Source: a virus. From it: a stretch of DNA of 40,561 nt. Both the position numbers and the translations under genes were made by a program. Location: the UHGV virus genome UHGV-0150809. One strand, written 5' to 3'. The notes below the pieces were generated by a model. It ran no database searches. It had not been told where the DNA came from and saw only the letters and a list, made by a program, of their open reading frames with translations. This document shows positions 1,400-39,874 of this stretch, in pieces. Numbering within the stretch: position 1 is the first letter of the stretch; each line of letters starts with the position of its first letter.

Positions 1400-2422
1400 T
1401 TACTCGAATTCTGGACGCATATCGTTAAGCGTCATCATGAATTTTTGGTGATATTCATCACCGAGCTTGTCAGCCATGGTGTTAATTTCATTTTCAGCGC
1501 GCTTGAACATCGTTTTTGCATCTTCAGCAGATGGATCCAGGCTATTAAGTATCGCGATGATATATTCTCGAGCTTCTTCTCGTTCTGAATCTGAAATTGG
1601 CGATAGGTGTTGACGCTCATCGTCAACTACGGAATATTCACCAGTGATAACAGCTGCGTTATCTTGGCTAAGTCCAGCTTCAGCGCGCTCATCCATAACA
1701 ACAGCCTTCTGCATTTCAATAGAAACAGGAAGATATTTGAACAGTCGGCGAATTACTGTTTTTTTAGCCATCTCATCGAAGTGATCAACCCATGGGCCAC
1801 TGCTACCGGCTTTGCTCAGTGCACGAACTTTCTCAACGTCTGCCCGGCTCATAACTTCAAATTGGACACCGCCATCTTTCAGTCGGGCAACGGCGTAAAC
1901 GTGCGTTAGTTCTCCGCGGTCACCTGTTTCGCAAGGTAAATGCTCGAGCGTTTCTTCCAGGCCGTATGAGTAGCTGAATTTGTCGTTTGTATGTACGGTA
2001 CGAGCCGAGATGCTCAGGATCTGCCCTGAGCGGCGGGCAAGGTCAATCATTCCGCGATAGCCGATAATCAGCTGTGCTTCTGTAGATACGGTTTCCCATC
2101 TTCCATTTACTTTCTGGCGTTTGTCGAACGGTATCAGGTAAGCGTGTCCAAGAGCTCCGCCTGGTTCAAGACCCAATTGGGCACATTGCATAATTGCCCC
2201 CAGGAAGCTGGCTTGGTCGCATGATGCAAGTTTTGGAACCTTTCGGATCTCTGTGGTTGCTATGCGCGCCAGACGGTCTGCTGTCATGTGCTTTGGAAGT
2301 GCCAAAGCCATCTGAGCTTTAATTTTTGGGTCTGCCAGAAGTCCGGCCAGAGTTGTTGGTTTCTCATTATGATGTGCAACTTGGTTACCGGTAGCCGCTG
2401 CCTTAAGTGCATTGATAGACAT
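1400..2422 (-). CDS. recT: RecT-family single-strand annealing recombinase
   Basis: 340-aa ORF with the RecT-like core (GYRGMIDLARRSG, acidic C-terminal tail); AAGGAG RBS; immediately downstream of a YqaJ-type exonuclease, the canonical pairing. Confidence 0.8.
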   Translation of the reverse strand: MSINALKAAATGNQVAHHNEKPTTLAGLLADPKIKAQMALALPKHMTADRLARIATTEIRKVPKLASCDQASFLGAIMQCAQLGLEPGGALGHAYLIPFDKRQKVNGRWETVSTEAQLIIGYRGMIDLARRSGQILSISARTVHTNDKFSYSYGLEETLEHLPCETGDRGELTHVYAVARLKDGGVQFEVMSRADVEKVRALSKAGSSGPWVDHFDEMAKKTVIRRLFKYLPVSIEMQKAVVMDERAEAGLSQDNAAVITGEYSVVDDERQHLSPISDSEREEAREYIIAILNSLDPSAEDAKTMFKRAENEINTMADKLGDEYHQKFMMTLNDMRPEFE

Positions 2423-3935: not shown

Positions 3936-4520
3936 TTATTGTTTATTTTTTTCGTTCTGGTTGATGACAAATTCAATGTAACTTTCGATCTTTGCTTTCT
4001 CGGTTTCGGGTAACAATGCGTAGCGCGAGCGGTCATAGTTGATGGTCGCAGGGTCGTGCGGGTGAATCAGTAATTCATAGCCGTGACGCCCGAATGCGGA
4101 TGCAACATTCTCCAGGGTGGAAATGGAAACGCTGACTTCATTGTTTAACAGGCGGCTGATTGTCACCTGGGCGACGCCGGATGCGCGGTGAAGTTTTCCT
4201 TGTGTTGAAAGGTCGCGGCTTTCGCTCATCCAGCGTTCCAGGTTGTGAGCCGCCAGCTGACCAATGTCGCTTGGTCCGACAGGCTGAAAACCCTCCTGAG
4301 AAAGCGAGCGATCGATATCAAGCCAGTTACGTGGTTTATTGGCGGCAGCTTCAATTTTTCGCGCAACCTGGTCGCCGATAACCTTCTTGCCAAGAGCCCA
4401 GCGGTTTACCAGATTTGCCTGAGTTCCAAGTTTTTCTGCCATCCGCGTCTGAACACCATTGAATTCACGGTCGATCAAGTCGTTGAGATTTTGCCTGCGG
4501 ACGTCCTGGATACTTTTCAT
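3936..4520 (-). CDS. Phage repressor (CI-like) with two tandem HTH domains and no S24/LexA-like autopeptidase domain
   Basis: 194 aa; N-terminal HTH (GVQTRMAEKLGTQANLVNRWALGKK) and second HTH (ASGVAQVTISRLLNNE); no Ala-Gly/Ser-Lys peptidase motifs; divergent from the cro-like gene with an operator cluster between. Confidence 0.7.
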   Translation of the reverse strand: MKSIQDVRRQNLNDLIDREFNGVQTRMAEKLGTQANLVNRWALGKKVIGDQVARKIEAAANKPRNWLDIDRSLSQEGFQPVGPSDIGQLAAHNLERWMSESRDLSTQGKLHRASGVAQVTISRLLNNEVSVSISTLENVASAFGRHGYELLIHPHDPATINYDRSRYALLPETEKAKIESYIEFVINQNEKNKQ

Positions 4521-13920: not shown

Positions 13921-13997
13921 TGGCGTGGCATGCAGGATTCGAACCTGCGACCAACCGCTTAGAAGGCGGTTGCTCTGTCCAACTGAGCTAATGCCAC
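13921..13997 (-). tRNA. tRNA-Arg (anticodon UCU), argU-like
   Basis: Reverse complement folds as a 77-nt cloverleaf: acceptor GTGGCAT/ATGCCAC, D-arm GCTC-AGTTGGACA-GAGC, anticodon loop CTTCTAA, T-arm GCAGG-TTCGAAT-CCTGC, discriminator G and encoded CCA. Confidence 0.8.
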
Positions 13998-14645: not shown

Positions 14646-16325
14646 ATGGCGGAAACAACTAAAGAGCGATTGAACAAACAGTTCGCACAACTTGAAAGCG
14701 AGCGTCAGTCGTTCGAGCCGCACTGGCGCGAGTTGAGTGATTACATCAACCCGCGTGGTTCCCGCTTTCTGACTTCTGAGGCCAACCGTAACGATCGGCG
14801 CAATACACGCATTATTGATTCGACCGGGACTATGGCGGCGCGCACTCTCGCCAGCGGCATGATGTCAGGCATCACAAGCCCCGCGCGTCCGTGGTTTCGC
14901 CTGGCTACGCCAGATCCTGAAATGATGGATTATGGCCCTGTTAAGTTGTGGCTTGAGGCAGTTCAGAACCGCATGAACGATATGTTCAATAAGTCGAATC
15001 TCTACCAGTCTCTTCCGCAGTTATACGGAAGCCTCGGCACATACAGCACTGGTGCAATGGCAGTGCTGGAGGATGACGAGGACATCATTCGCACAATGCC
15101 ATTCCCGATAGGCAGTTACTACCTGGCTAACTCACCTCGTGGCAGTGTTGACACCTGTTTTCGCAAGTTCTCTATGACTGTTCGTCAGCTTGTTCAGGAG
15201 TTCGGGCTAAATAACGTCAGCGAATCCGTAAAAAGCATGTGGGAAAGCGGCACCTACGAGAAGTGGATCGAAGTGAGGCATTCGGTTTACCCGAACATTG
15301 ACCGCGATACATCGAAGCTGGATAGCAAGAACAAGCCATTCAAATCGGTTTATTACGAGGTTGGTGGAGATAACGACAAGTTGTTGCGTGAGTCCGGATT
15401 CGATGAGTTTCCAATTATGGCTCCGCGCTGGGAAGTTAACGGCGAAGATGTTTATGGATCATCATGCCCGGGTATGCTGGCGCTTGGACCTGTTAAGGCA
15501 TTGCAGCTTCTCCAGAAGCGCAAGTCGCAGTTGATTGATAAAGCCACCAATCCGCCGATGGTTGCTCCGACTTCCCTCAAGAATCAGCGCGCCTCCCTTC
15601 TTCCTGGCGACATCACGTATATCGATCAGATTACTGGTCAGGATGGCTTCAGGCCTGCTTATCTGGTTAACCCCAGTACAGCAGATTTGGTGGCAGACAT
15701 TCAGGACACTCGTCAAATCATTAACAGCGCCTACTTTGTCGATCTGTTCATGATGTTGCAGAACATCAATACCCGCTCGATGCCTGTTGAAGCGGTGATC
15801 GAAATGAAAGAAGAAAAACTTCTGATGTTGGGGCCGGTTCTGGAGCGTCTGAACGACGAATGTCTTAATCCTCTCATTGACCGCGCTTTCTCGATGATGG
15901 TGCGCAAAAACATGCTGCCGCCACCGCCTGACGCGATGGAAGGCATGCCCCTGAAGGTCGAATACATTTCCGTCATGGCTCAGGCGCAGAAGTCTATCGG
16001 CCTGTCCAGTCTGGCGTCCACGGTTAACTTCATTGGTCAACTTGCGCAAGCGAAACCAGAAGCTCTCGACAAACTCAACGTTGATCAGGCGATCGATGCA
16101 TTCGCTGATATGTCCGGAGTGTCTCCAACCGTCATTGTTCCGCAGGAACAGGTTGAGCAGGCTCGCCAGCAACGGGCACAGCAACAACAGCAGCAACAAA
16201 TGATGGCGATGGGGATGGCGGCGGCACAGGGGGCCAAGACGCTAAGCGAAGCTAAAACTTCGGATCCGAGTGTGTTGTCAGCTATGGCGAATGCAGTTAG
16301 TGGTCAGGGTGGGCAATCACAATGA
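14646..16325 (+). CDS. Head-to-tail connector (portal), T7 gp8-like
   Basis: 559 aa; GGAG RBS; N-terminal ARTLASGMMSGITSPARPWFRLAT and Gln/Met/Ala-rich C-terminus (QQQQQQQMMAMGMAAAQGA) parallel T7 gp8 as recalled. Confidence 0.8.
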   Translation: MAETTKERLNKQFAQLESERQSFEPHWRELSDYINPRGSRFLTSEANRNDRRNTRIIDSTGTMAARTLASGMMSGITSPARPWFRLATPDPEMMDYGPVKLWLEAVQNRMNDMFNKSNLYQSLPQLYGSLGTYSTGAMAVLEDDEDIIRTMPFPIGSYYLANSPRGSVDTCFRKFSMTVRQLVQEFGLNNVSESVKSMWESGTYEKWIEVRHSVYPNIDRDTSKLDSKNKPFKSVYYEVGGDNDKLLRESGFDEFPIMAPRWEVNGEDVYGSSCPGMLALGPVKALQLLQKRKSQLIDKATNPPMVAPTSLKNQRASLLPGDITYIDQITGQDGFRPAYLVNPSTADLVADIQDTRQIINSAYFVDLFMMLQNINTRSMPVEAVIEMKEEKLLMLGPVLERLNDECLNPLIDRAFSMMVRKNMLPPPPDAMEGMPLKVEYISVMAQAQKSIGLSSLASTVNFIGQLAQAKPEALDKLNVDQAIDAFADMSGVSPTVIVPQEQVEQARQQRAQQQQQQQMMAMGMAAAQGAKTLSEAKTSDPSVLSAMANAVSGQGGQSQ

Positions 16326-30665: not shown

Positions 30666-31211
30666 TTATTCCTTCCATTTATCAGAAAAAAGATCTTCTT
30701 CTAAAGGCATTGGTTCTGTTTTTGTTTTCTCAAAGAATTGATAACTGATAGTGATTGCTGCCTCTTTAAACTCTTCTTGCTCAGTTATGTTGTGGGCATC
30801 TGCGTCAACAAAAAACATAACCAGCGCATCACGATTGTGATTTACCGAATAAACTAAAAAGCAATCACTTGTTGGTATGCATTTTACTTGCACAGACGCT
30901 ATATTTTTCCATGCATCCCAAGATGATTTTTTACCAGTGTGTTTTTTATCACTATCTTCTGGAATATAGTCTTGGTTATCGACATGAGTATGCCTGACAT
31001 TTAGTTTAAGCATTTCTGTCGGACGAGCAAATGCAGCATCTTTACCAAGAGATGGATGGTATCCCGTTTTCCAATACTGGGTAAAGGCATCAGATACTTT
31101 CTTCAGCTCAAGATCAGATGCACAAAGGGCCGAGAAATTTTGCGTATGCAATACTCGACCCTTATATCTGACAATTTGATTTTTATCATTCTGCGACGCA
31201 GACGAACTCAT
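30666..31211 (-). CDS. Hypothetical moron protein (181 aa), possible YafO-family toxin-like C-terminal region
   Basis: ORF track 30666..31238; preferred start MSSSASQ at 31211 after AAGGAAA; AT-rich; the pattern LKLNVRHTHV...TSDCFLVY...ADAHN parallels a recalled YafO pattern (RVAHIHL...LVY...PHK); tentative. Confidence 0.45.
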   Translation of the reverse strand: MSSSASQNDKNQIVRYKGRVLHTQNFSALCASDLELKKVSDAFTQYWKTGYHPSLGKDAAFARPTEMLKLNVRHTHVDNQDYIPEDSDKKHTGKKSSWDAWKNIASVQVKCIPTSDCFLVYSVNHNRDALVMFFVDADAHNITEQEEFKEAAITISYQFFEKTKTEPMPLEEDLFSDKWKE

Positions 31212-31365
31212 AATTTTCCTTATTGTTACGAGAATCAAAGAAAGCGCGGGATACGCGACTTGCGTGATCTTTTGTCATAGTAACTTTTACGCACTCTACG
31301 CTTCCATTGAAAGAACGTCTTGCGGCAGCTTGCGCTCTACGCATCTGCAATTTTTCGTTTCGCAT
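31186..31365 (-). CDS. Small basic 59-aa ORF upstream of and overlapping the 181-aa moron gene (not in ORF track)
   Basis: Hand-translated MRNEKLQMRRAQAAARRSFNGSVECVKVTMTKDHASRVSRAFFDSRNNKENYEFVCVAE; GAGGTAA RBS 6 nt upstream of the ATG; overlaps the downstream start by 26 nt. Confidence 0.3.
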   Translation of the reverse strand: MRNEKLQMRRAQAAARRSFNGSVECVKVTMTKDHASRVSRAFFDSRNNKENYEFVCVAE

Positions 31366-31425
31366 GACATTACCTCATATCTCATAAGTTCATTACACGG
31401 ATTAATAAAAATGAAACCAATCCGT

Positions 31426-31467
31426 TTACCCTTGAGGTAATAGTACGCTATTCACCAACAGTCTGCA
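31426..31467 (-). promoter_or_regulatory. Candidate sigma70 promoter (-35 TTGCAG, 17-bp spacer, -10 TACTAT on the minus strand) with operator TTACCCTTGAGGTAA (31426-31440) just downstream of the -10
   Basis: Hexamers and spacing read on the reverse complement; operator is a perfect copy of the recurring palindrome. Confidence 0.4.
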
Positions 31468-31513: not shown

Positions 31514-32200
31514 TCAGAAGAATCCTGCTTTGTCGTTGATGTACTCCGCGTGCGTCTGGATATCACGCAGGCATTTGCTCACACCGACGATGTAGCAGAA
31601 CATGGTGGTCAGCTCTGCCGCCGCGCCCGATACGTCGTGCCCGTCTTCCTGTAACTGGTTCAGCAGATTCATCAGCAGTGAGTTCTCCGTCAGGCCGAGA
31701 ACACCAGACGGCGAGTGAATCAGGCTGCGGTAGCCGGGCTTCAGCGGGGCACTGTAGGTTTTGTTCTCTATCTTCATCGCCTGCATTACTGCTGACGCCG
31801 TGGCGTTGGCTACCTGGTCGGCAACCATCTTTATGCGTTCTTCCTGCGGGAGCGAGTTTTTAATGTAACTTCCGGTGCGGCGGATCTGAGGAAGAACCTC
31901 ACCTGTAACCCATTTACGAAAGCGGTAGGGGATAGTGCCTGGTGTCACCGCATCGCGGCAGCGGAGGATCAGTGTGTAGAGGCCTGACTCGTTGATAATA
32001 TTGGTTTCGCCTTGACGGCCTAAGTTAAATTTAGCCCTTTCATCATCATCAAGAGATTTTATTGACATAGTGGGGTTTGTCAGTTGAAGAGCTTTAATAA
32101 CGTCTTTGGCAACAAACCAAGGATTTCCATCAATAACAATGGCTCGAATGGTTGCCTCTGATTCAAAATGAAAAACAGATGGGGTTACGTTAGCAGTCAT
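31514..32200 (-). CDS. Antirepressor, Bro-N domain family
   Basis: Preferred start MTANVTPSVFHFESE at 32200 after AAAGGTGA; N-terminal ATIRAIVIDGNPWFVAKDVIKAL matches the Bro-N/KilA-N antirepressor signature; ORF track extension to 32353 lacks an RBS and is likely leader. Confidence 0.7.
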   Translation of the reverse strand: MTANVTPSVFHFESEATIRAIVIDGNPWFVAKDVIKALQLTNPTMSIKSLDDDERAKFNLGRQGETNIINESGLYTLILRCRDAVTPGTIPYRFRKWVTGEVLPQIRRTGSYIKNSLPQEERIKMVADQVANATASAVMQAMKIENKTYSAPLKPGYRSLIHSPSGVLGLTENSLLMNLLNQLQEDGHDVSGAAAELTTMFCYIVGVSKCLRDIQTHAEYINDKAGFF

Positions 32201-32466
32201 AGTGATCACCTTTGTAGTTAGGTTAATCACCACTACCGACGCCAATCGGTTGGTGGTGAACTGTGCAGGGTTGGCGTAACCGGCTACAAAGGACCCGGCG
32301 CACCTTTCGGTGCCCCCACACAGCCCACCATAGAATAGGTGCGCTTTACACATAAAAAAACCGCTTATGCGGCATATGTGCCTCTGTAGTAACCCGGGAC
32401 GCCAATCCCGGCACTGGCAAAATCCAGTGCCCGATTACTATGGCACAAGAGGAGTGCGATGTAAAT

Positions 32467-32574
32467 TTACCGCAAAGGTAATGATAAACGCGAAGAAATA
32501 TTAAAATCAACCGTATTTGGTTGATTGCGTTTAACGCTTGATCACCTGAAAGCAAGATATTACCTTTAAGGTAA
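32467..32574. promoter_or_regulatory. Two operator-like palindromes (32467-32481 TTACCGCAAAGGTAA; 32560-32574 TTACCTTTAAGGTAA) in the divergent region between the antirepressor and the zinc-ribbon gene
   Basis: Perfect motif copies; a weaker copy TCACCTGAAAGCAAG lies between them. Confidence 0.45.
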
Positions 32575-32594
32575 TGTTATTGTGAGGAAAAGCA

Positions 32595-33323
32595 ATGGAA
32601 GTTTTCTGGATAGTTGTTGGTGTGGTTGCGGTGATTATTTACGTTATCAACCAGAACAAGACTAAGATCTCTGATCGTACGGTCGTTAATCATAACAAAA
32701 CGATAAAGACCGAAGATGGGGAGATAACGATTAATCGTACACAGGTGATAGAACACACCTCTACTCAGTTTCAAAAAACTGGAGGTAATGCGCCTAATAT
32801 TTCCGCACCTCCTGCTTATGATAGTGCGGTAATCCAGACATATTATAAACAGCAGGAGTTAGCAAAAGAGAGGCAACTGATTCAGCCAAAGCCGTTTACA
32901 GCTGAGCTTCCACCTGGAGTGTCAACGCGTCCGGCATATCATGGAAGATTCCCTGGTGATGACATATCGTCTCAGTCATCTAAAAAAGCACCTCAGGCAG
33001 TATCAGAGCCAGCAAGAATACCTTCTGCATCGCCGCCAAAAGAAGAATCAGCTAACAGAGTTTCAAGTGGTAGCAAGCAGTGCTTGCGATGCAGAATAAA
33101 CCTTCCATATGAAAAATTCAGGAAATCGTCAAAAAATCCAGATGGATTGACTAAGTGGTGTGCAAGGTGTCTCGATGGCCCAAAGAATACACGCCATATG
33201 AAGTGGTGCCCAATTTGTAATGTCCGCAGAAAACGAACCAGCTTTTACCCTAATAATCAAAATGCGGACGGCTTAATGGCATGGTGCAAAACGTGCTGGG
33301 ATGAGCACAAAGCGAAACGATAG
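32595..33323 (+). CDS. Membrane-anchored protein with tandem C-terminal zinc ribbons
   Basis: 242 aa; N-terminal TM helix (VFWIVVGVVAVIIYVI), Pro/Ser-rich linker, then two repeats of C-x2-C ... DGL-x2-WC-x2-C (CLRCRINLPYEKFRKSSKNPDGLTKWCARC; CPICNVRRKRTSFYPNNQNADGLMAWCKTC). Confidence 0.5.
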   Translation: MEVFWIVVGVVAVIIYVINQNKTKISDRTVVNHNKTIKTEDGEITINRTQVIEHTSTQFQKTGGNAPNISAPPAYDSAVIQTYYKQQELAKERQLIQPKPFTAELPPGVSTRPAYHGRFPGDDISSQSSKKAPQAVSEPARIPSASPPKEESANRVSSGSKQCLRCRINLPYEKFRKSSKNPDGLTKWCARCLDGPKNTRHMKWCPICNVRRKRTSFYPNNQNADGLMAWCKTCWDEHKAKR

Positions 33324-33345
33324 GCCGCTCTTGCGGCCTTTAAAT

Positions 33346-33603
33346 TTACCGGGTTTGTTTTCGTAATTGTTCGGCACAATAGTCGAGATGTGTTTGCAGA
33401 TCCTGCATAGACATCTGTGAGCTGGTGACGTAGTTAATCAGTGCAGTCAGTTCGGCAAGTGGGCCATCGACATTAAATCCATCCTTATCGAGATCCCGGA
33501 GTAATTTCATCAAGTGCGATCCCTCCACCAGTGACCTGACGCCTCCCGGCGTGTGAATCCTTTCGGTAAATCCGTCTTCCAGTGGATAGTGATACTGCTG
33601 CAT
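33346..33603 (-). CDS. Short antirepressor-like protein, paralog of the C-terminal domain of the Bro-N antirepressor; candidate SOS-induced antirepressor
   Basis: Preferred start MQQYHY at 33603 after GGAGAAG; RIHTPGGVRSLVEGSHLMKLLRDLDKDGFNVDGPLAELTALINYV aligns by eye with SLIHSPSGVLGLTENSLLMNLLNQLQEDGHDVSGAAAELTTMFCYI of the 31514-32200 product; LexA box 22 bp upstream. Confidence 0.55.
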   Translation of the reverse strand: MQQYHYPLEDGFTERIHTPGGVRSLVEGSHLMKLLRDLDKDGFNVDGPLAELTALINYVTSSQMSMQDLQTHLDYCAEQLRKQTR

Positions 33604-33624
33604 CTTATCTTCTCCATGCAATAA

Positions 33625-33640
33625 CTGTATAAATATACAG
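33625..33640. promoter_or_regulatory. LexA (SOS) box CTGTATAAATATACAG
   Basis: Perfect CTGT-N8-ACAG with AT-rich spacer, overlapping a TATATT -10-like hexamer for the leftward gene starting at 33603. Confidence 0.6.
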
Positions 33641-33679
33641 TATCAAATAATTTGTTTGCTATCCAGCACGTTTTGCAAA

Positions 33680-33694
33680 TCACCTGAAAGGTAA
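33680..33694. promoter_or_regulatory. Operator-like palindrome TCACCTGAAAGGTAA
   Basis: One-mismatch copy of the motif about 40 bp from the LexA box, between the small antirepressor and the tail-fibre gene. Confidence 0.4.
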
Positions 33695-33798
33695 TATCTT
33701 TTCGTATTTATGGGTTATCTATCCATATATGGTTTTTCAGGTAATAGAATAACCAGATATGCGGCGCAACGGGTGCTGCGACTATCTGGAGATTTAAC

Positions 33799-36555
33799 AT
33801 GACGGTCTCAACCGAAGTTGACCACAACGAATACACTGGTAACGGCGCTACGACATCATTTCCGTATACCTTCCGTATTTTCAAAAAATCCGACCTGGTT
33901 GTTCAGGTGTCTGACCTGAACGGGAACGTAACAGAATTGGTTCTGGATACCGGTTATACGGTAACTGGGGCGGGCACTTATAGTGGCGGTTCTGTTGTTC
34001 TTCCGTCTCCGCTTGCTGCTGGATGGCGAATTACGATAGATCGTGTGCTTGATGTAGTGCAGGAGACAGACCTTCGCAATCAGGGTAAATTTTTCCCCGA
34101 AGTGCATGAAGATGCTTTTGACTACCTGACGATGCTGATCCAGCAATGTTTTGGGTGGTTCAGACGTGCATTGATGAAACCATCTTTGCTTGCAAAATAT
34201 TACGATGCAAAGCAAAACAGAATATCTAACCTTGCTGATCCATCACTTGAGCAGGACGCTGTAAATAATCGCTCAATGCGTAATTATGTCGATGCTGCAA
34301 TCGCCGGAGTTATTGGTGGTTTTGGTTGGTTTATTCAGTATGGTTCTGGAGCAGTATACCGAACGTTCCAGGATAAGATGCGGGATAACGTTAACGCTCT
34401 TGATTTTGTTCCGTTTGAGCAAAGATATGCTGCATTAAATTTTGAAGTTGATGCGTCTGAATGGTTAATTAATGCGATAAATTCTGGTGCAAGTGTCGTT
34501 AGAATACCTGCAGGTAAATGGATGATTTCTAAGAATATAGATGTGCCTCCTGGAGTTTCATTAATTGGTGATGGAATTGATTACTGGGATACATATAGAC
34601 CAGCGCCTGAAAGATTATTAAAAAGTTGGAGTAAAGGAACCCATCTTGTATTTACTGGTGATGGAGAAAAAAACAAATATTTTTTTAACATCTCTAATGA
34701 AAGACCAGTTAAAATTGTTGAAGGGATATCTTGTAAGTTCACTGAGTTTACAAATGAAGATTCTGTAGGTGTTACTCCTGCTACACCAAAAGCCATGAGC
34801 GTAGCTGTTAGTATCAACAGGGCATCACAGTTACGCAATCTGAGAATAATGGTAAGTAAAAATGGTATTGAAGGATACAATAACCCTGATTCTTATTCAT
34901 TGGGTGATAACTGGGATATAGGGTTGCATGTATACGATAGCTGTGATTCAGTTATTGATAACGTACAGATTGTCGGCTATTGGAGGGTAAAAGGACTACT
35001 ACTGACAGAAAATGACGGGAGCCTTTCAATGAAGGGAAATCCTGAAAAAACGCACTTTAATAACGTTTATGTCCAGTCAGGGATCGCGATAAGGAATAGC
35101 CCTCAGATTGATCTTGTAAGTAATACTGAAAGCTCAGTGACATTTAAACATAAAAAGTCGATGAGAATAACTTCAGTTAAACAGTTTAAAATTGCTGGCA
35201 GTGAATCAGTATATACGTATTCAGATGCATCATTTGATGGAGCTAACATCACACTATCTGGTATTTCTCCTGAAATACAAGGTACAATAAGTGTAATCAG
35301 GTTTCCGTCAATTGGTAATAATTTTAGCGGGACTGTTTTTGAGAATACAGTAGCCACTACTCTTGATCATACATCAGGTAAGCCATCAGAATACTTTGGC
35401 CTTCCTGCATCCTTTGCATTAGAGGTTGATGGTTTCCCTGTTCGTAATTTAAGGTTTGATAAATTCAAAGCTCAAACAACATTTGATAAAGGAAATTGCA
35501 TTTTTGGTGATTGCCGTGATGTTAAAATAACATCATCTGAGTTTGAAAATGGAATTATGATTGCGTATAACCAGACCGAGACTCAGGGTTATACAGGAAA
35601 TCTTAGATTTTTTGCTTCTGATCTTCAGAGCAGCGTTAACACAAGTGAGTTTAAACCAAGAGACGCATTTGTAGACAATAGACAAATAAAAACGGAGTTT
35701 ACTGATGGTTCGTTCATTATAAAGAACTGGAGGCCTACAGATACAAAAATACAATGGTCGTCTGGAGCAGATGCTATTGTTCTTAGAGAGTCACCTGACG
35801 AACAATCAGACGGAAATATTTACGGGTATCACATTGATGGTAAAAGATGGATTAATGTTAGTGGATATAACAAAGATATAAATATTTCATCAAGAAACTT
35901 AAGCGTAAAAAACCATGGTGATGACTCTGCAGTTATTAATATATTCGGCGACTCTGGAAATATTGCCATTAAAGGTAATTTTTCACCAATTATTGATAAC
36001 AGCAAATCTCTTGGTGCACCATCATTTAGATGGGCACAGGTTTATTCTGCGAACGGTTCGATAAACACATCAGATGGTAGAGAAAAAAGTGAACCGATTA
36101 GTACAAGTGAGCTCAGCTTGTATATGTCTCGTGGTTATGAAGGTGATGCAATTCTGGATGCATGGGGAGATATCAGGATTGTAGCTTTTCGCTGGCTTGA
36201 TGCCGTCAGGGAAAAGGGAGATGGTGCCCGCTGGCATTTTGGTGTTATAGCACAACAAGTGAGAGACACTTTCCTCGCGCATGGGATTGATGGAACCAGA
36301 TTTGGCCTTCTCTGTTACGATGAATGGGATGATAAATACGCGCCAGTGATGGCGGTAAGGATGATCACTAAAGTTGTGGATGGCGTCGAAATTGAGATGG
36401 AAGAAGAATACGAAACAGAAGAGCGAACTCTGGTTTGCAAGGCTGGAAATAGGTGGGGTATCCGTACTGACCAGTGTTTATGGCTTGAGTCAGCTTATTT
36501 GCGTAGAAGAATCGAAAAAATAGAATCACGTCTTGCAATGCTTGAAAGTAGCTAA
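33799..36555 (+). CDS. Tail fibre/tailspike: T7 gp17-like N-terminal adaptor, AT-rich central receptor-binding/enzymatic region, C-terminal S74 intramolecular chaperone domain
   Basis: 918 aa; N-terminus NEYTGNGATTSFPYTFRIFKKSDLVV parallels the T7 fibre N-terminus; C-terminus contains the SDGREKS cleavage-site-like motif and following chaperone domain; central part visibly AT-richer. Confidence 0.75.
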   Translation: MTVSTEVDHNEYTGNGATTSFPYTFRIFKKSDLVVQVSDLNGNVTELVLDTGYTVTGAGTYSGGSVVLPSPLAAGWRITIDRVLDVVQETDLRNQGKFFPEVHEDAFDYLTMLIQQCFGWFRRALMKPSLLAKYYDAKQNRISNLADPSLEQDAVNNRSMRNYVDAAIAGVIGGFGWFIQYGSGAVYRTFQDKMRDNVNALDFVPFEQRYAALNFEVDASEWLINAINSGASVVRIPAGKWMISKNIDVPPGVSLIGDGIDYWDTYRPAPERLLKSWSKGTHLVFTGDGEKNKYFFNISNERPVKIVEGISCKFTEFTNEDSVGVTPATPKAMSVAVSINRASQLRNLRIMVSKNGIEGYNNPDSYSLGDNWDIGLHVYDSCDSVIDNVQIVGYWRVKGLLLTENDGSLSMKGNPEKTHFNNVYVQSGIAIRNSPQIDLVSNTESSVTFKHKKSMRITSVKQFKIAGSESVYTYSDASFDGANITLSGISPEIQGTISVIRFPSIGNNFSGTVFENTVATTLDHTSGKPSEYFGLPASFALEVDGFPVRNLRFDKFKAQTTFDKGNCIFGDCRDVKITSSEFENGIMIAYNQTETQGYTGNLRFFASDLQSSVNTSEFKPRDAFVDNRQIKTEFTDGSFIIKNWRPTDTKIQWSSGADAIVLRESPDEQSDGNIYGYHIDGKRWINVSGYNKDINISSRNLSVKNHGDDSAVINIFGDSGNIAIKGNFSPIIDNSKSLGAPSFRWAQVYSANGSINTSDGREKSEPISTSELSLYMSRGYEGDAILDAWGDIRIVAFRWLDAVREKGDGARWHFGVIAQQVRDTFLAHGIDGTRFGLLCYDEWDDKYAPVMAVRMITKVVDGVEIEMEEEYETEERTLVCKAGNRWGIRTDQCLWLESAYLRRRIEKIESRLAMLESS

Positions 36556-38800: not shown

Positions 38801-39340
38801 TTAGTTAAACCAGCTGTCCGATTTGTTCTCTTCTGCTTTACCCACGCTTTTCATCAGATCGCGACCGCCTTCAGTCATATTTCTGTTTGCGTCAGCTTCA
38901 GATTGCACCACATCGGTTTGCGCAGCTTTGTGCTTCAGTTCCTGATCGATAAATTCGTTTTCGCGCTTGACGCGGGCTTCTTCTTTCGCCAGCGCCAGTT
39001 TTTGTTTCTGAATCTCTAAGCTGCGTAGCTCATCTTCATAACTTTGATCGCGTTTTTTGTCCGCAGTGGCTTCGGCGTCCAGTTTATCCTGACGAGCTTT
39101 CTTATTCGCCGCTGCCGTTGCCGCTCTTTTATTAGCCGCGGCCTGGGCGTTTGCGCGACGTTGCTTCTCTTGCTGGATTTCCCTGTTGCGCTCCGCGACC
39201 CATTCGTCATGCTGCCTTTGCTCTTCATTTTTACCTTGCTGTTCCGCTTCTGCGACAGCCGAGAGTTGATCCTGCAATGATGAGGCGATAGCCGGATAGC
39301 TTAAGGAGGCTAAGATGGCGCAAAGAAAAACTTTCTTCAT
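38801..39340 (-). CDS. Secreted Lys/Glu/Ala-rich coiled-coil protein
   Basis: 179 aa; N-terminal signal peptide MKKVFLCAILASLSYPAIA; charged, low-complexity helical body. Confidence 0.5.
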   Translation of the reverse strand: MKKVFLCAILASLSYPAIASSLQDQLSAVAEAEQQGKNEEQRQHDEWVAERNREIQQEKQRRANAQAAANKRAATAAANKKARQDKLDAEATADKKRDQSYEDELRSLEIQKQKLALAKEEARVKRENEFIDQELKHKAAQTDVVQSEADANRNMTEGGRDLMKSVGKAEENKSDSWFN

Positions 39341-39355
39341 GACTCCTCCTGATTA

Positions 39356-39874
39356 TTAGCTCTTTTCAGGACATTTGGTATTTGGCTGAATACGCGTTTC
39401 GTTATACGTCGTGGTAATAACAACGGCTAAACCTGTCGTAAACTGGCACTCTTTACCCACCTGGGTGGAGGTATACACTTTGGTGCCTTCCTTATATGTT
39501 AAAGAAACACCTTCCACTAAGGTTTTATCATTCACCATCGAACCCGCTGCCGCGCCTACAGCTCCGCCGCCAACTGCACCTGCCGTCGTTCCGGAATTGC
39601 TGCCAGACCCGACGTTGTGGCCGATAACACCGCCAGCGACAGCGCCAATAAGCGCGCCGAAGGCTTGTGCGTTCCGTTTATTTTGGGCGTTGTCTACGGC
39701 AACTTTTGCGGGAAGAATGGAAATAATATTAACGGTTTTAGTTTCTTGTTTGGTATTCAGTTGATCGGTTTGATAAACATCGGCAGCATGATCATCAGCA
39801 TTTGACTGGCATCCTGCCAGAGTGAATGACGCTAACATTGCCACAGGCAGAAGACATTTTTTAAATTTCATCAC
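39356..39874 (-). CDS. Lipoprotein with glycine-zipper region
   Basis: 172 aa; lipobox LAGC after the signal peptide; Gly/Ala-rich GALIGAVAGGVIGHNVG...GAVGGGAVGAAAG segment. Confidence 0.55.
   Translation of the reverse strand: MMKFKKCLLPVAMLASFTLAGCQSNADDHAADVYQTDQLNTKQETKTVNIISILPAKVAVDNAQNKRNAQAFGALIGAVAGGVIGHNVGSGSNSGTTAGAVGGGAVGAAAGSMVNDKTLVEGVSLTYKEGTKVYTSTQVGKECQFTTGLAVVITTTYNETRIQPNTKCPEKS

Follow-up and report, generated by a model that had tools for sequence, protein, structure and literature searches.

The closest described counterpart of the locus studied here is the induction switch of Salmonella phage SPC32H. According to PMC7380047, which cites Kim & Ryu 2013 (J Virol 87:11775), self-cleavage of LexA leads there to production of the antirepressor Ant and, through it, to inhibition of the phage repressor, and PMC9638917, which cites Kim et al. 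2016 (PNAS 113:E2480), describes a tetrameric Ant that binds two dimers of the repressor Rep and breaks the Rep tetramer. For phage vB_EcoP_ZX5 (hereafter ZX5), mitomycin C was found to lift free phage from ~ 1e7 to 1e9 PFU/mL, and overexpression of ORF4 lowered the prophage/lysogen titre from 1e9 to 1e6 (~ 1000-fold down) and the repressor mRNA by 75%, in a study that is silent on LexA, SPC32H, the small Ant ORF and RNAs (PMC9782041). Another set of described systems places antirepressor genes behind RNA leaders. The C4 antisense principle comes from P1 c4-ant (Citron & Schuster 1990, as cited in PMC7313666), and the isrK-orf45-anrP layout of Gifsy-1 (PMC4825925) matches that of the Bro-N leader described below.

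Focusing on the antirepressor region of virus genome UHGV-0150809, we analysed a stretch of 40,561 nucleotides, hereafter the window, which is a phiV10/epsilon15-like podovirus (Uetakevirus) prophage in an E. coli chromosome. Its segment 31400-33800 was 100% identical to two E. coli chromosomes, and at least 80% of this 2.4-kb segment was carried by 122 of 5,426 complete E. coli genomes. The prophage very probably uses an SPC32H-type LexA-Ant-Rep induction switch, beside which stands a second antirepressor gene preceded by its own RNA leader.

The small antirepressor, its LexA box and the repressor

The core of the proposed switch is made of the following features:

33346..33603, minus strand: ant, encoding an 85-aa small antirepressor, orthologue of SPC32H Ant (PDB 5D50_E, PHROG 450)
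33623..33642, no strand: LexA (SOS) box AACTGTATAAATATACAGTA, with the core CTGTATAAATATACAG (CTGT-N8-ACAG) at 33625-33640
33637..33665, minus strand: candidate ant promoter, with -35 TGGATA (33665-33660), a 17-nt spacer and -10 TACTGT (33642-33637)
33679..33695, no strand: operator-like palindrome ATCACCTGAAAGGTAAT of the ant-tailspike spacer, conserved in alignment A1 and separated by 14 bp from the candidate ant -35 downstream of it
3936..4520, minus strand: rep, encoding a 194-aa prophage repressor, orthologue of SPC32H Rep (5D50_A, E = 4e-42 over the full length; 5D4Z_A, 4e-20)

The ant product matched the "Anti-repressor protein" chain of Salmonella phage SPC32H (PDB 5D50_E) over residues 2-84 with E = 4e-47. 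It was 86% identical to SPC32H Ant, 98-99% identical to ORFs of phiV10 and TL-2011b, and 100% identical to QZE12053.1 of ZX5, a protein labelled hypothetical in that record, as Ant also is in RefSeq and GenBank records of E. coli ("hypothetical protein"). PHROG 450 was matched both by Ant (9e-48) and by the Bro-N protein (4e-36), and no family model for Ant was found in Pfam and NCBIfam; DUF724, its sole Pfam match, fell below threshold and was set aside. An ant homologue divergent from the tailspike gene was recovered in SPC32H, SPC32N, epsilon15, phiV10, TL-2011b, Tyrion, ZX5 and a Klebsiella phage. The start codon of ant is the ATG at 33603, with GGAG before it, and an alternative TTG start located 6 codons further upstream would give a product of 91 aa.

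The initial annotation had reported a perfect CTGT-N8-ACAG box ~ 22 bp upstream of this leftward ORF and a repressor with two helix-turn-helix (HTH) domains but no S24 peptidase, and both observations were confirmed. The distance from box to ant ATG is 21 nt. The 20-mer is near-consensus, agreeing with the LexA consensus TACTGTATATATATACAGTA at 18 of 20 positions, and it scored 28.7 bits with a position matrix derived from classic E. coli SOS boxes, all bit scores from this matrix being approximate. On the same scale, the second-best site of the 40.5-kb window reached 12.9 bits, and the best scores of 300 shuffles averaged 11.3 +/- 2.4 bits, with a highest value of 20.6. The bare CTGT-N8-ACAG pattern was seen 4 times in the window for 0.56 expected, a single copy (33625-33640) being LexA-like. 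As for the repressor, Pfam placed HTH_3 at residues 106-147 and a weaker, sub-threshold YdaS-type HTH at 21-61, and returned no match to Peptidase_S24.

When the ant-tailspike spacers of six phages were aligned (alignment A1), the LexA box was in register across all of them, TL-2011b, phiV10, SPC32H and epsilon15 carrying it at the same position, within intergenic DNA that is only ~ 77% identical among the phages sharing it. In this alignment, SPC32H (…TATACAGT) and SPC32N (…TATAAAGT) differ by a C-to-A change through which the ACAG half-site becomes AAAG. This substitution in the box is reportedly the single-base change of Kim & Ryu 2013 that renders Ant constitutive and results in a lytic phenotype. 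By analogy with promoter p95 of phage 186, the ant promoter would lie at TGGATA-N17-TACTGT and overlap the LexA box, the left half of which corresponds to the candidate -10 TACTGT. Both GCTGGATAG and TACTGT were unchanged across the relatives in alignment A1, leaving the two candidate promoter hexamers invariant, and a generic sigma-70 promoter scan of 33250-33850 found no promoter.

Rep was 43% identical to SPC32H Rep overall and just 39% identical in its C-terminal domain; since this is said to be the domain bound by Ant, the Ant-Rep interaction is here assumed from homology. The two partners thus display an asymmetry, with Ant at 86% and Rep at 43% identity to their SPC32H counterparts (39% for the Rep C-terminal domain), a pattern that fits antirepressors that would cross-react among heteroimmune relatives.

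The palindrome ATTACCT-N3-AGGTAAT was found at 14 sites of the window with up to 3 mismatches, for 1.14 expected, and the 11 sites with at most 2 mismatches all lay outside the main predicted genes, as judged by manual comparison with the ORF lists. These 11 sites were distributed over the interval separating rep from the cro-like gene, a position downstream of rep but before the leftward recombination genes, the region following the replication genes, the upstream regions of the portal-sized ORF (14646-16325), of the YafO-like ORF and of isrK (two sites in the latter case), and the ant-tailspike spacer (one site). The GenBank record of epsilon15 marks the same motif, by in silico annotation, as predicted repressor-binding sites at equivalent places, including the ant-tailspike spacer. 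Position, enrichment and this in silico GenBank annotation suggest that the palindromes are Rep operators; Cro or another protein could also be their binder.

The Bro-N antirepressor and its RNA leader

The second antirepressor gene and its upstream region comprise the following features:

31514..32200, minus strand: second antirepressor, with a Bro-N domain (residues 18-104) and an Ant-like C-terminal domain (~ 147-224) (Pfam, PHROG, 5D50_E)
32249..32335, minus strand: C4-type antisense RNA in the Bro-N leader (Rfam RF01695, 79.5 bits for a gathering score of 45)
32354..32430, minus strand: isrK-type sRNA with intrinsic terminator, first element of the leader (Rfam RF01394, 56.7 bits for a gathering score of 50)
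32431..32482, minus strand: candidate isrK promoter, with -35 TTTACA, N17 and extended -10 TGcCATAGT, hexamers read from the sequence
32466-32482: operator-like palindrome abutting the isrK -35 (alignment A4)
32559..32575, no strand: perfect operator-like palindrome ATTACCTTTAAGGTAAT, located where the isrK operon and a 242-aa ORF diverge

The N-terminal domain of this protein matched PF02498 (5.2e-20, residues 18-104), and the protein also matched PHROG 130, 245 and others labelled 'anti-repressor'. Its C-terminus had been aligned by eye with the 85-aa ORF in the initial annotation, and the pairwise check proved significant: stretch 2-79 of Ant and stretch 147-224 of the Bro-N protein form an ungapped alignment with 40% identity (E = 8e-16). 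The Bro-N protein also matched PDB 5D50_E directly (1.1e-13), and identity of its Ant-like C-terminal domain to the cognate Ant amounts to 36-40%.

By contrast, the description of Ant as a 'truncated paralog' of the Bro-N gene was not supported. A search of 1.84 billion representative proteins gave just 63 clusters matching the Ant domain at E<=1e-3, and the commonest class among these matches was a stand-alone protein of ~ 80-96 aa, ~ 86 aa being the experimentally characterised form; in these 63 clusters, the Ant domain, when fused, is always C-terminal. Close homologues of Ant were nearly all stand-alone in a word-indexed homologue search, which returned only close orthologues. The characterised form stands alone, and the Bro-N protein is a fusion with an Ant-like domain as its C-terminal part.

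Nor is the pairing of Ant with a full-length antirepressor 'unusual', as had also been stated. The Ant-like domain was detected in only 34 of 50,697 phage records, and all 34, mostly annotated as Uetakevirus, matched the ant region too. Phages of the E. coli group, Enterobacter phage Tyrion and Klebsiella phages carry the domain both on its own and as a fusion, and the pairing also recurs in the 122 of 5,426 E. coli genomes mentioned above. The fusion gene of phiV10 is split into two ORFs, and no isrK-C4-Bro-N module was found in SPC32H and epsilon15. Since the pairing recurs across the lineage, yet includes a split fusion in phiV10, it is a conserved but dispensable lineage feature and no oddity of this island. 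A DGHDVSGAAAE motif is common to the Klebsiella Ant and the fusions.

Control of the Bro-N gene is separate, a point overlooked in the initial annotation: isrK and C4 RNAs are located directly upstream of its ATG at 32200. This pair of RNAs was also recovered in TL-2011b, phiV10, Tyrion and a Klebsiella phage, and the fold of the Bro-N leader was unusually stable (z = -5.1). The C4 loop CCUUUGUAG is a perfect 9-nt complement of CUACAAAGG, which lies over the Bro-N Shine-Dalgarno, and ZX5 displays compensatory changes on both sides of this pairing (CCUUUUAG/CUAAAAGG). A second C4 pairing likewise covaries, from ACGCCAA/TTGGCGT in the window to AGACCAA/TTGGTCT in Tyrion and the Klebsiella phage.

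Upstream of isrK, the palindrome at 32466-32482 showed invariant arms and a variable centre across five phages from three genera (alignment A4). We rejected the reading in which this palindrome is a built-in part of the isrK cassette: VT2-Sakai carries isrK-C4 before an unrelated ant and has no such palindrome, and similarity to non-Uetakevirus phages starts within isrK, outside the promoter, which counts against this reading as well. Comparison of the Bro-N protein with this VT2-Sakai ant revealed no similarity (best E = 0.36). As the same isrK-C4 leader precedes this unrelated gene, the isrK-C4 unit is a portable control cassette, and the antirepressor cargo behind it is lineage specific here. 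The sequence context suggests that Rep may repress the isrK-C4-Bro-N operon.

Proposed circuit and alternative readings

In the lysogen, host LexA would sit on 33623-33642, over the predicted position of the ant promoter, and keep Ant silent, and Rep, presumably not cleavable through RecA, would keep the lytic promoters off via putative binding to the ATTACCT-N3-AGGTAAT operators. Upon DNA damage, LexA would be cleaved and Ant made; judging from the homologous Rep-Ant co-crystal of SPC32H (PDB 5D50), Ant would then bind Rep and free it from DNA, and the prophage would be induced. In this part of the circuit, the orthology of Ant and Rep and the conservation and strength of the LexA box are observed here, and the literature on close relatives provides LexA control, Rep inactivation by Ant and mitomycin C inducibility. 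The Bro-N protein would act as a second antirepressor under separate control, expressed from a candidate isrK promoter that abuts a Rep-type operator and would place the isrK-C4-Bro-N operon under Rep, and the C4 antisense RNA from the leader of the gene itself would block Bro-N translation, as in P1 c4-ant. The RNA elements and their covarying complementarity are observed in this case, and the pro-lytic effect of Bro-N is borrowed from work on relatives. Altogether, the central proposal of the initial annotation, a LexA-derepressed antirepressor acting against a non-cleavable two-HTH repressor, is supported by Ant and Rep being orthologous to their SPC32H counterparts and by the box being in register. 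The mechanism is already known, as the orthologue of a genetically and structurally solved switch, and because the SPC32H system was established beforehand, that proposal was right but not new.

It is highly improbable that the LexA-like box is instead a chance AT-rich palindrome or a site serving the divergent tailspike promoter, with an 85-aa ORF that would not be SOS regulated. The box does lie in the intergenic region common to ant and tailspike, 158 nt from the tailspike ATG, and the generic scan found no ant promoter, but its 28.7 bits exceed the shuffle maximum of 20.6, it is conserved in intergenic DNA of only ~ 77% identity, it differs between SPC32H and SPC32N, reportedly with a constitutive-Ant effect, and it is located 21 nt from the ant ATG. 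With the SPC32H-type switch retained, the role of the Bro-N fusion may be read in several ways. As an extension of the main explanation, which we consider possible albeit doubtful, the small Ant would be the SOS trigger only, Rep displacement would derepress the isrK-C4-Bro-N operon, and the fusion would titrate remaining or new Rep; induction would then become irreversible, the C4 RNA setting a threshold against leaky expression. Such a latch is consistent with the operator-like palindrome abutting the isrK -35 in five phages of three genera, with its conserved arms and variable centre, and with the lack of this palindrome where isrK-C4 precedes an unrelated ant (VT2-Sakai). It is also in line with the restriction of the Ant-like C-terminal domain to phage records, mostly Uetakevirus, that also encode a stand-alone Ant homologue, with the co-occurrence of both forms in E. 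coli, Enterobacter and Klebsiella phages, and with the effects of ZX5 ORF4 overexpression, which cuts the lysogen titre ~ 1000-fold and the repressor mRNA by 75% (PMC9782041). However, the latch assumes both Rep binding at the isrK site and silence of the operon in lysogens, SPC32H and epsilon15 are devoid of a second tier altogether, and the Bro-N gene of phiV10 is split in two ORFs, from which the second tier appears dispensable for a viable temperate phage. In lysogens of P1, moreover, there is some expression of the c4-ant operon and ant is held off by C4 alone, which also counts against the latch.

Alternatively, the Bro-N::Ant-like module could be a secondary immunity system resembling P1/P22 immI that would not serve SOS induction of its own prophage, a reading that we judge rather unlikely. 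The module would then act mainly at infection or superinfection, where it would bias the lysis-lysogeny decision or inactivate in trans the Rep of related resident prophages. Its C4 control and layout are those of P1 c4-ant and Gifsy-1 isrK-orf45-anrP (PMC4825925, PMC7313666); its C-terminal domain shares just 36-40% identity with the cognate Ant and so could favour another Rep variant; relatives have strongly divergent Rep proteins (43% identity); and trans-acting antirepressor crosstalk is established in Gifsy phages, according to PMC7380047, which cites Lemire 2011. Yet overexpressed ZX5 ORF4 acts on its own phage (PMC9782041), and the Ant-like domain always accompanies a cognate Rep/Ant-type phage. 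We put forward with low confidence a two-tier circuit for the Uetakevirus of E. coli, Enterobacter and Klebsiella, in which a LexA-gated Ant trigger would be combined with a Bro-N::Ant fusion gated by a Rep operator and C4, the latter serving as latch/amplifier or as trans-acting weapon. In the searchable literature, no description was found of the domain shared by both antirepressors, nor of such two-tier wiring.

As the core switch has already been solved genetically and structurally in SPC32H, the locus matters mainly for annotation. Recognising the small Ant, overlooked in the experimental paper on the near-identical phage ZX5 (PMC9782041), would explain why mitomycin C induces a prophage type whose local 2.4-kb arrangement occurs in 122 of 5,426 complete E. 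coli genomes. The residual interest lies in the double use of one putative repressor-binding domain under orthogonal controls, one copy being governed by LexA and the other by a predicted Rep operator and C4 RNA, and the division of labour between both antirepressors, once clear, would add an example of layered control to the prophage-induction literature.

Comparison with known systems

Like the window, SPC32H is a Uetakevirus with an Ant of ~ 86 aa (86% identical), an orthologous Rep with two HTH-type domains and without S24, a LexA box at the same position, an ant gene divergent from the tailspike gene and a palindrome in the ant-tailspike spacer. The window differs from it by its E. coli host, by a Rep that is just 43% identical, by the presence of the isrK-C4-Bro-N::Ant-like module, and by a YafO-like ORF and a 242-aa zinc-ribbon ORF located just downstream of ant, before a gp17-like gene.

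The locus is nearly unchanged in ZX5, phiV10 and TL-2011b, which share with the window an Ant that is 98-100% identical, the same LexA box (near-identical in ZX5) and the same isrK-C4-Bro-N module, and the small Ant is annotated just as a hypothetical protein in their records. ORF4 of ZX5, which behaves as an antirepressor (PMC9782041), is 82% identical overall to the Bro-N protein of the window and identical from residue 69 to the C-terminus, its N-terminal part being mosaic, whereas the Bro-N gene is split in phiV10. Only TL-2011b shares with the window the 242-aa ORF that lies between ant and isrK, in contrast to ZX5 and phiV10.

The comparators chosen in the initial annotation, 186 Tum and the Gifsy phages, follow the same circuit logic: in 186 Tum as in Gifsy/Fels-2, a LexA box lies over the promoter of a small antirepressor whose target is a non-cleavable repressor. 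The proper comparator is nevertheless SPC32H Ant. BLASTP of Ant against 186 Tum returned no meaningful alignment (E = 0.061), on which basis homology between them was rejected, and the likeness to 186 Tum is therefore functional only. In 186 p95, the annotated -10 TACTGT is inside the LexA box, with the same geometry as in the candidate ant promoter of the window, and the p95 box TACTGTATGTTTATACAGTA holds the entire 19-nt box of SPC32H, TACTGTATGTTTATACAGT. The systems of 186, Gifsy and Fels-2 differ from the window by another repressor family and another phage type (Myoviridae or Siphoviridae).

For the Bro-N leader, the counterparts are the immI region of P1/P7 (c4-icd-ant) and isrK-orf45-anrP of Gifsy-1, in which isrK and C4 leader RNAs also precede the antirepressor gene, complementarity links the C4 loop to the ribosome-binding region, and an upstream ORF runs through the leader. 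The window differs from these modules by the operator-like palindrome beside the isrK promoter, which is specific to the Uetakevirus lineage, and probably also by its cargo, a Bro-N domain joined to an SPC32H-Ant-like domain.

Ant conservation, Rep divergence and operator-like palindromes

Comparison with Salmonella phage SPC32H revealed contrasted conservation of the two orthologues, with 86% identity for the small antirepressor Ant (33346-33603) against 43% for the prophage repressor Rep (3936-4520; 52% in its N-domain and 39% in its C-domain). Because Ant is conserved while its presumed target Rep has diverged, these sequence comparisons suggest either a conserved interaction surface or cross-reactivity among heteroimmune phages.

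The palindrome ATTACCT-N3-AGGTAAT was enriched in the window (14 sites versus 1.14 expected), frequently in pairs spaced by ~62 bp. These sites, which probably represent operators of Rep (or Cro), share their motif with the predicted repressor sites annotated in the epsilon15 record, and include the following 17-mers located outside the main predicted genes:

3801, 3863, 4575, 4960, 6906, 6968, 14319, 31425, 32466, 32559, 33679: ATTACCT-N3-AGGTAAT, up to 2 mismatches

Genes around ant and further window features

Two additional ORFs were identified in the vicinity of ant and of the isrK sRNA:

32595-33323, (+): 242-aa ORF, phrog_6762, with two zinc-ribbon repeats at its C-terminus
30666-31238, (-): 190-aa ORF, phrog_1651, with a marginal Pfam match to the YafO toxin (25.8 bits for a cut-off of 25)

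The zinc-ribbon repeats of the former resemble endonuclease VII, Lar or Stc1 motifs, and its position between ant and isrK was found only in the window and in phage TL-2011b, whereas in phiV10, ZX5 and Tyrion isrK, C4 and the Bro-N antirepressor gene directly follow ant without it. Upstream of the YafO-like ORF lies one of the operator-like palindromes (31425-31441).

Elsewhere, the window comprised:

13924-13997, (-): tRNA gene (Rfam, 73 bits), located inside the prophage, with the terminase region on one side and the portal region on the other
33799-36555, (+): tailspike with a conserved, epsilon15-type N-terminus
38801-39874, (-): DUF5384 protein and glycine-zipper/TraT-like lipoprotein-type ORF, past the lysis genes and close to the window's right end

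Residues 758-829 of the tailspike form a Peptidase_S74 intramolecular chaperone domain, and the C-terminal part of the protein is unlike that of the relatives, a swap of the receptor-binding module. The DUF5384 protein and the TraT-like ORF probably represent either cargo for lysogenic conversion or exclusion, or genes flanking the prophage.

Bro-N antirepressor gene, its leader and its relatives

In the Klebsiella phage ST512-KPC3phi13.3 (L008, 1840-3770), the LexA box reads ATGT instead of CTGT, and two short ORFs, HicA/HicB-like on inspection, separate ant from isrK. Its stand-alone Ant harbours the DGHDVSGAAAE motif, elsewhere characteristic of the domain when fused to Bro-N; gene conversion between the paralogues may account for this. 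In phiV10 (L005, 3009-3688), a split leaves the Bro-N antirepressor in two pieces, p23 (194 aa) and p22 (30 aa), and the Ant-like C-domain is therefore disrupted in the type phage.

In the window, isrK and C4 make up the leader preceding the Bro-N antirepressor gene, and an upstream ORF overlaps part of it:

32249-32430, (-): isrK sRNA and C4 antisense RNA (Rfam)
32201-32353, (-): upstream ORF in frame with the Bro-N ORF, starting at ATG 32353 directly 3' of the isrK terminator

The Shine-Dalgarno sequence of the gene is complementary to the C4 loop, with compensatory changes in related phages. In TL-2011b (L001), Rfam also matched the sar RNA, the antisense RNA of P22 immI, in the cargo region (2114-2181, minus strand; 44.8 bits for a gathering score of 43); no Rfam equivalent of this match was found in the window. 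From ATG 32353, the upstream ORF extends across the stretch encoding C4 and continues as the Bro-N ORF, forming a potential reading frame of 279 aa, and is reminiscent of the coupling ORFs orf45 of Gifsy-1 and icd of P1.
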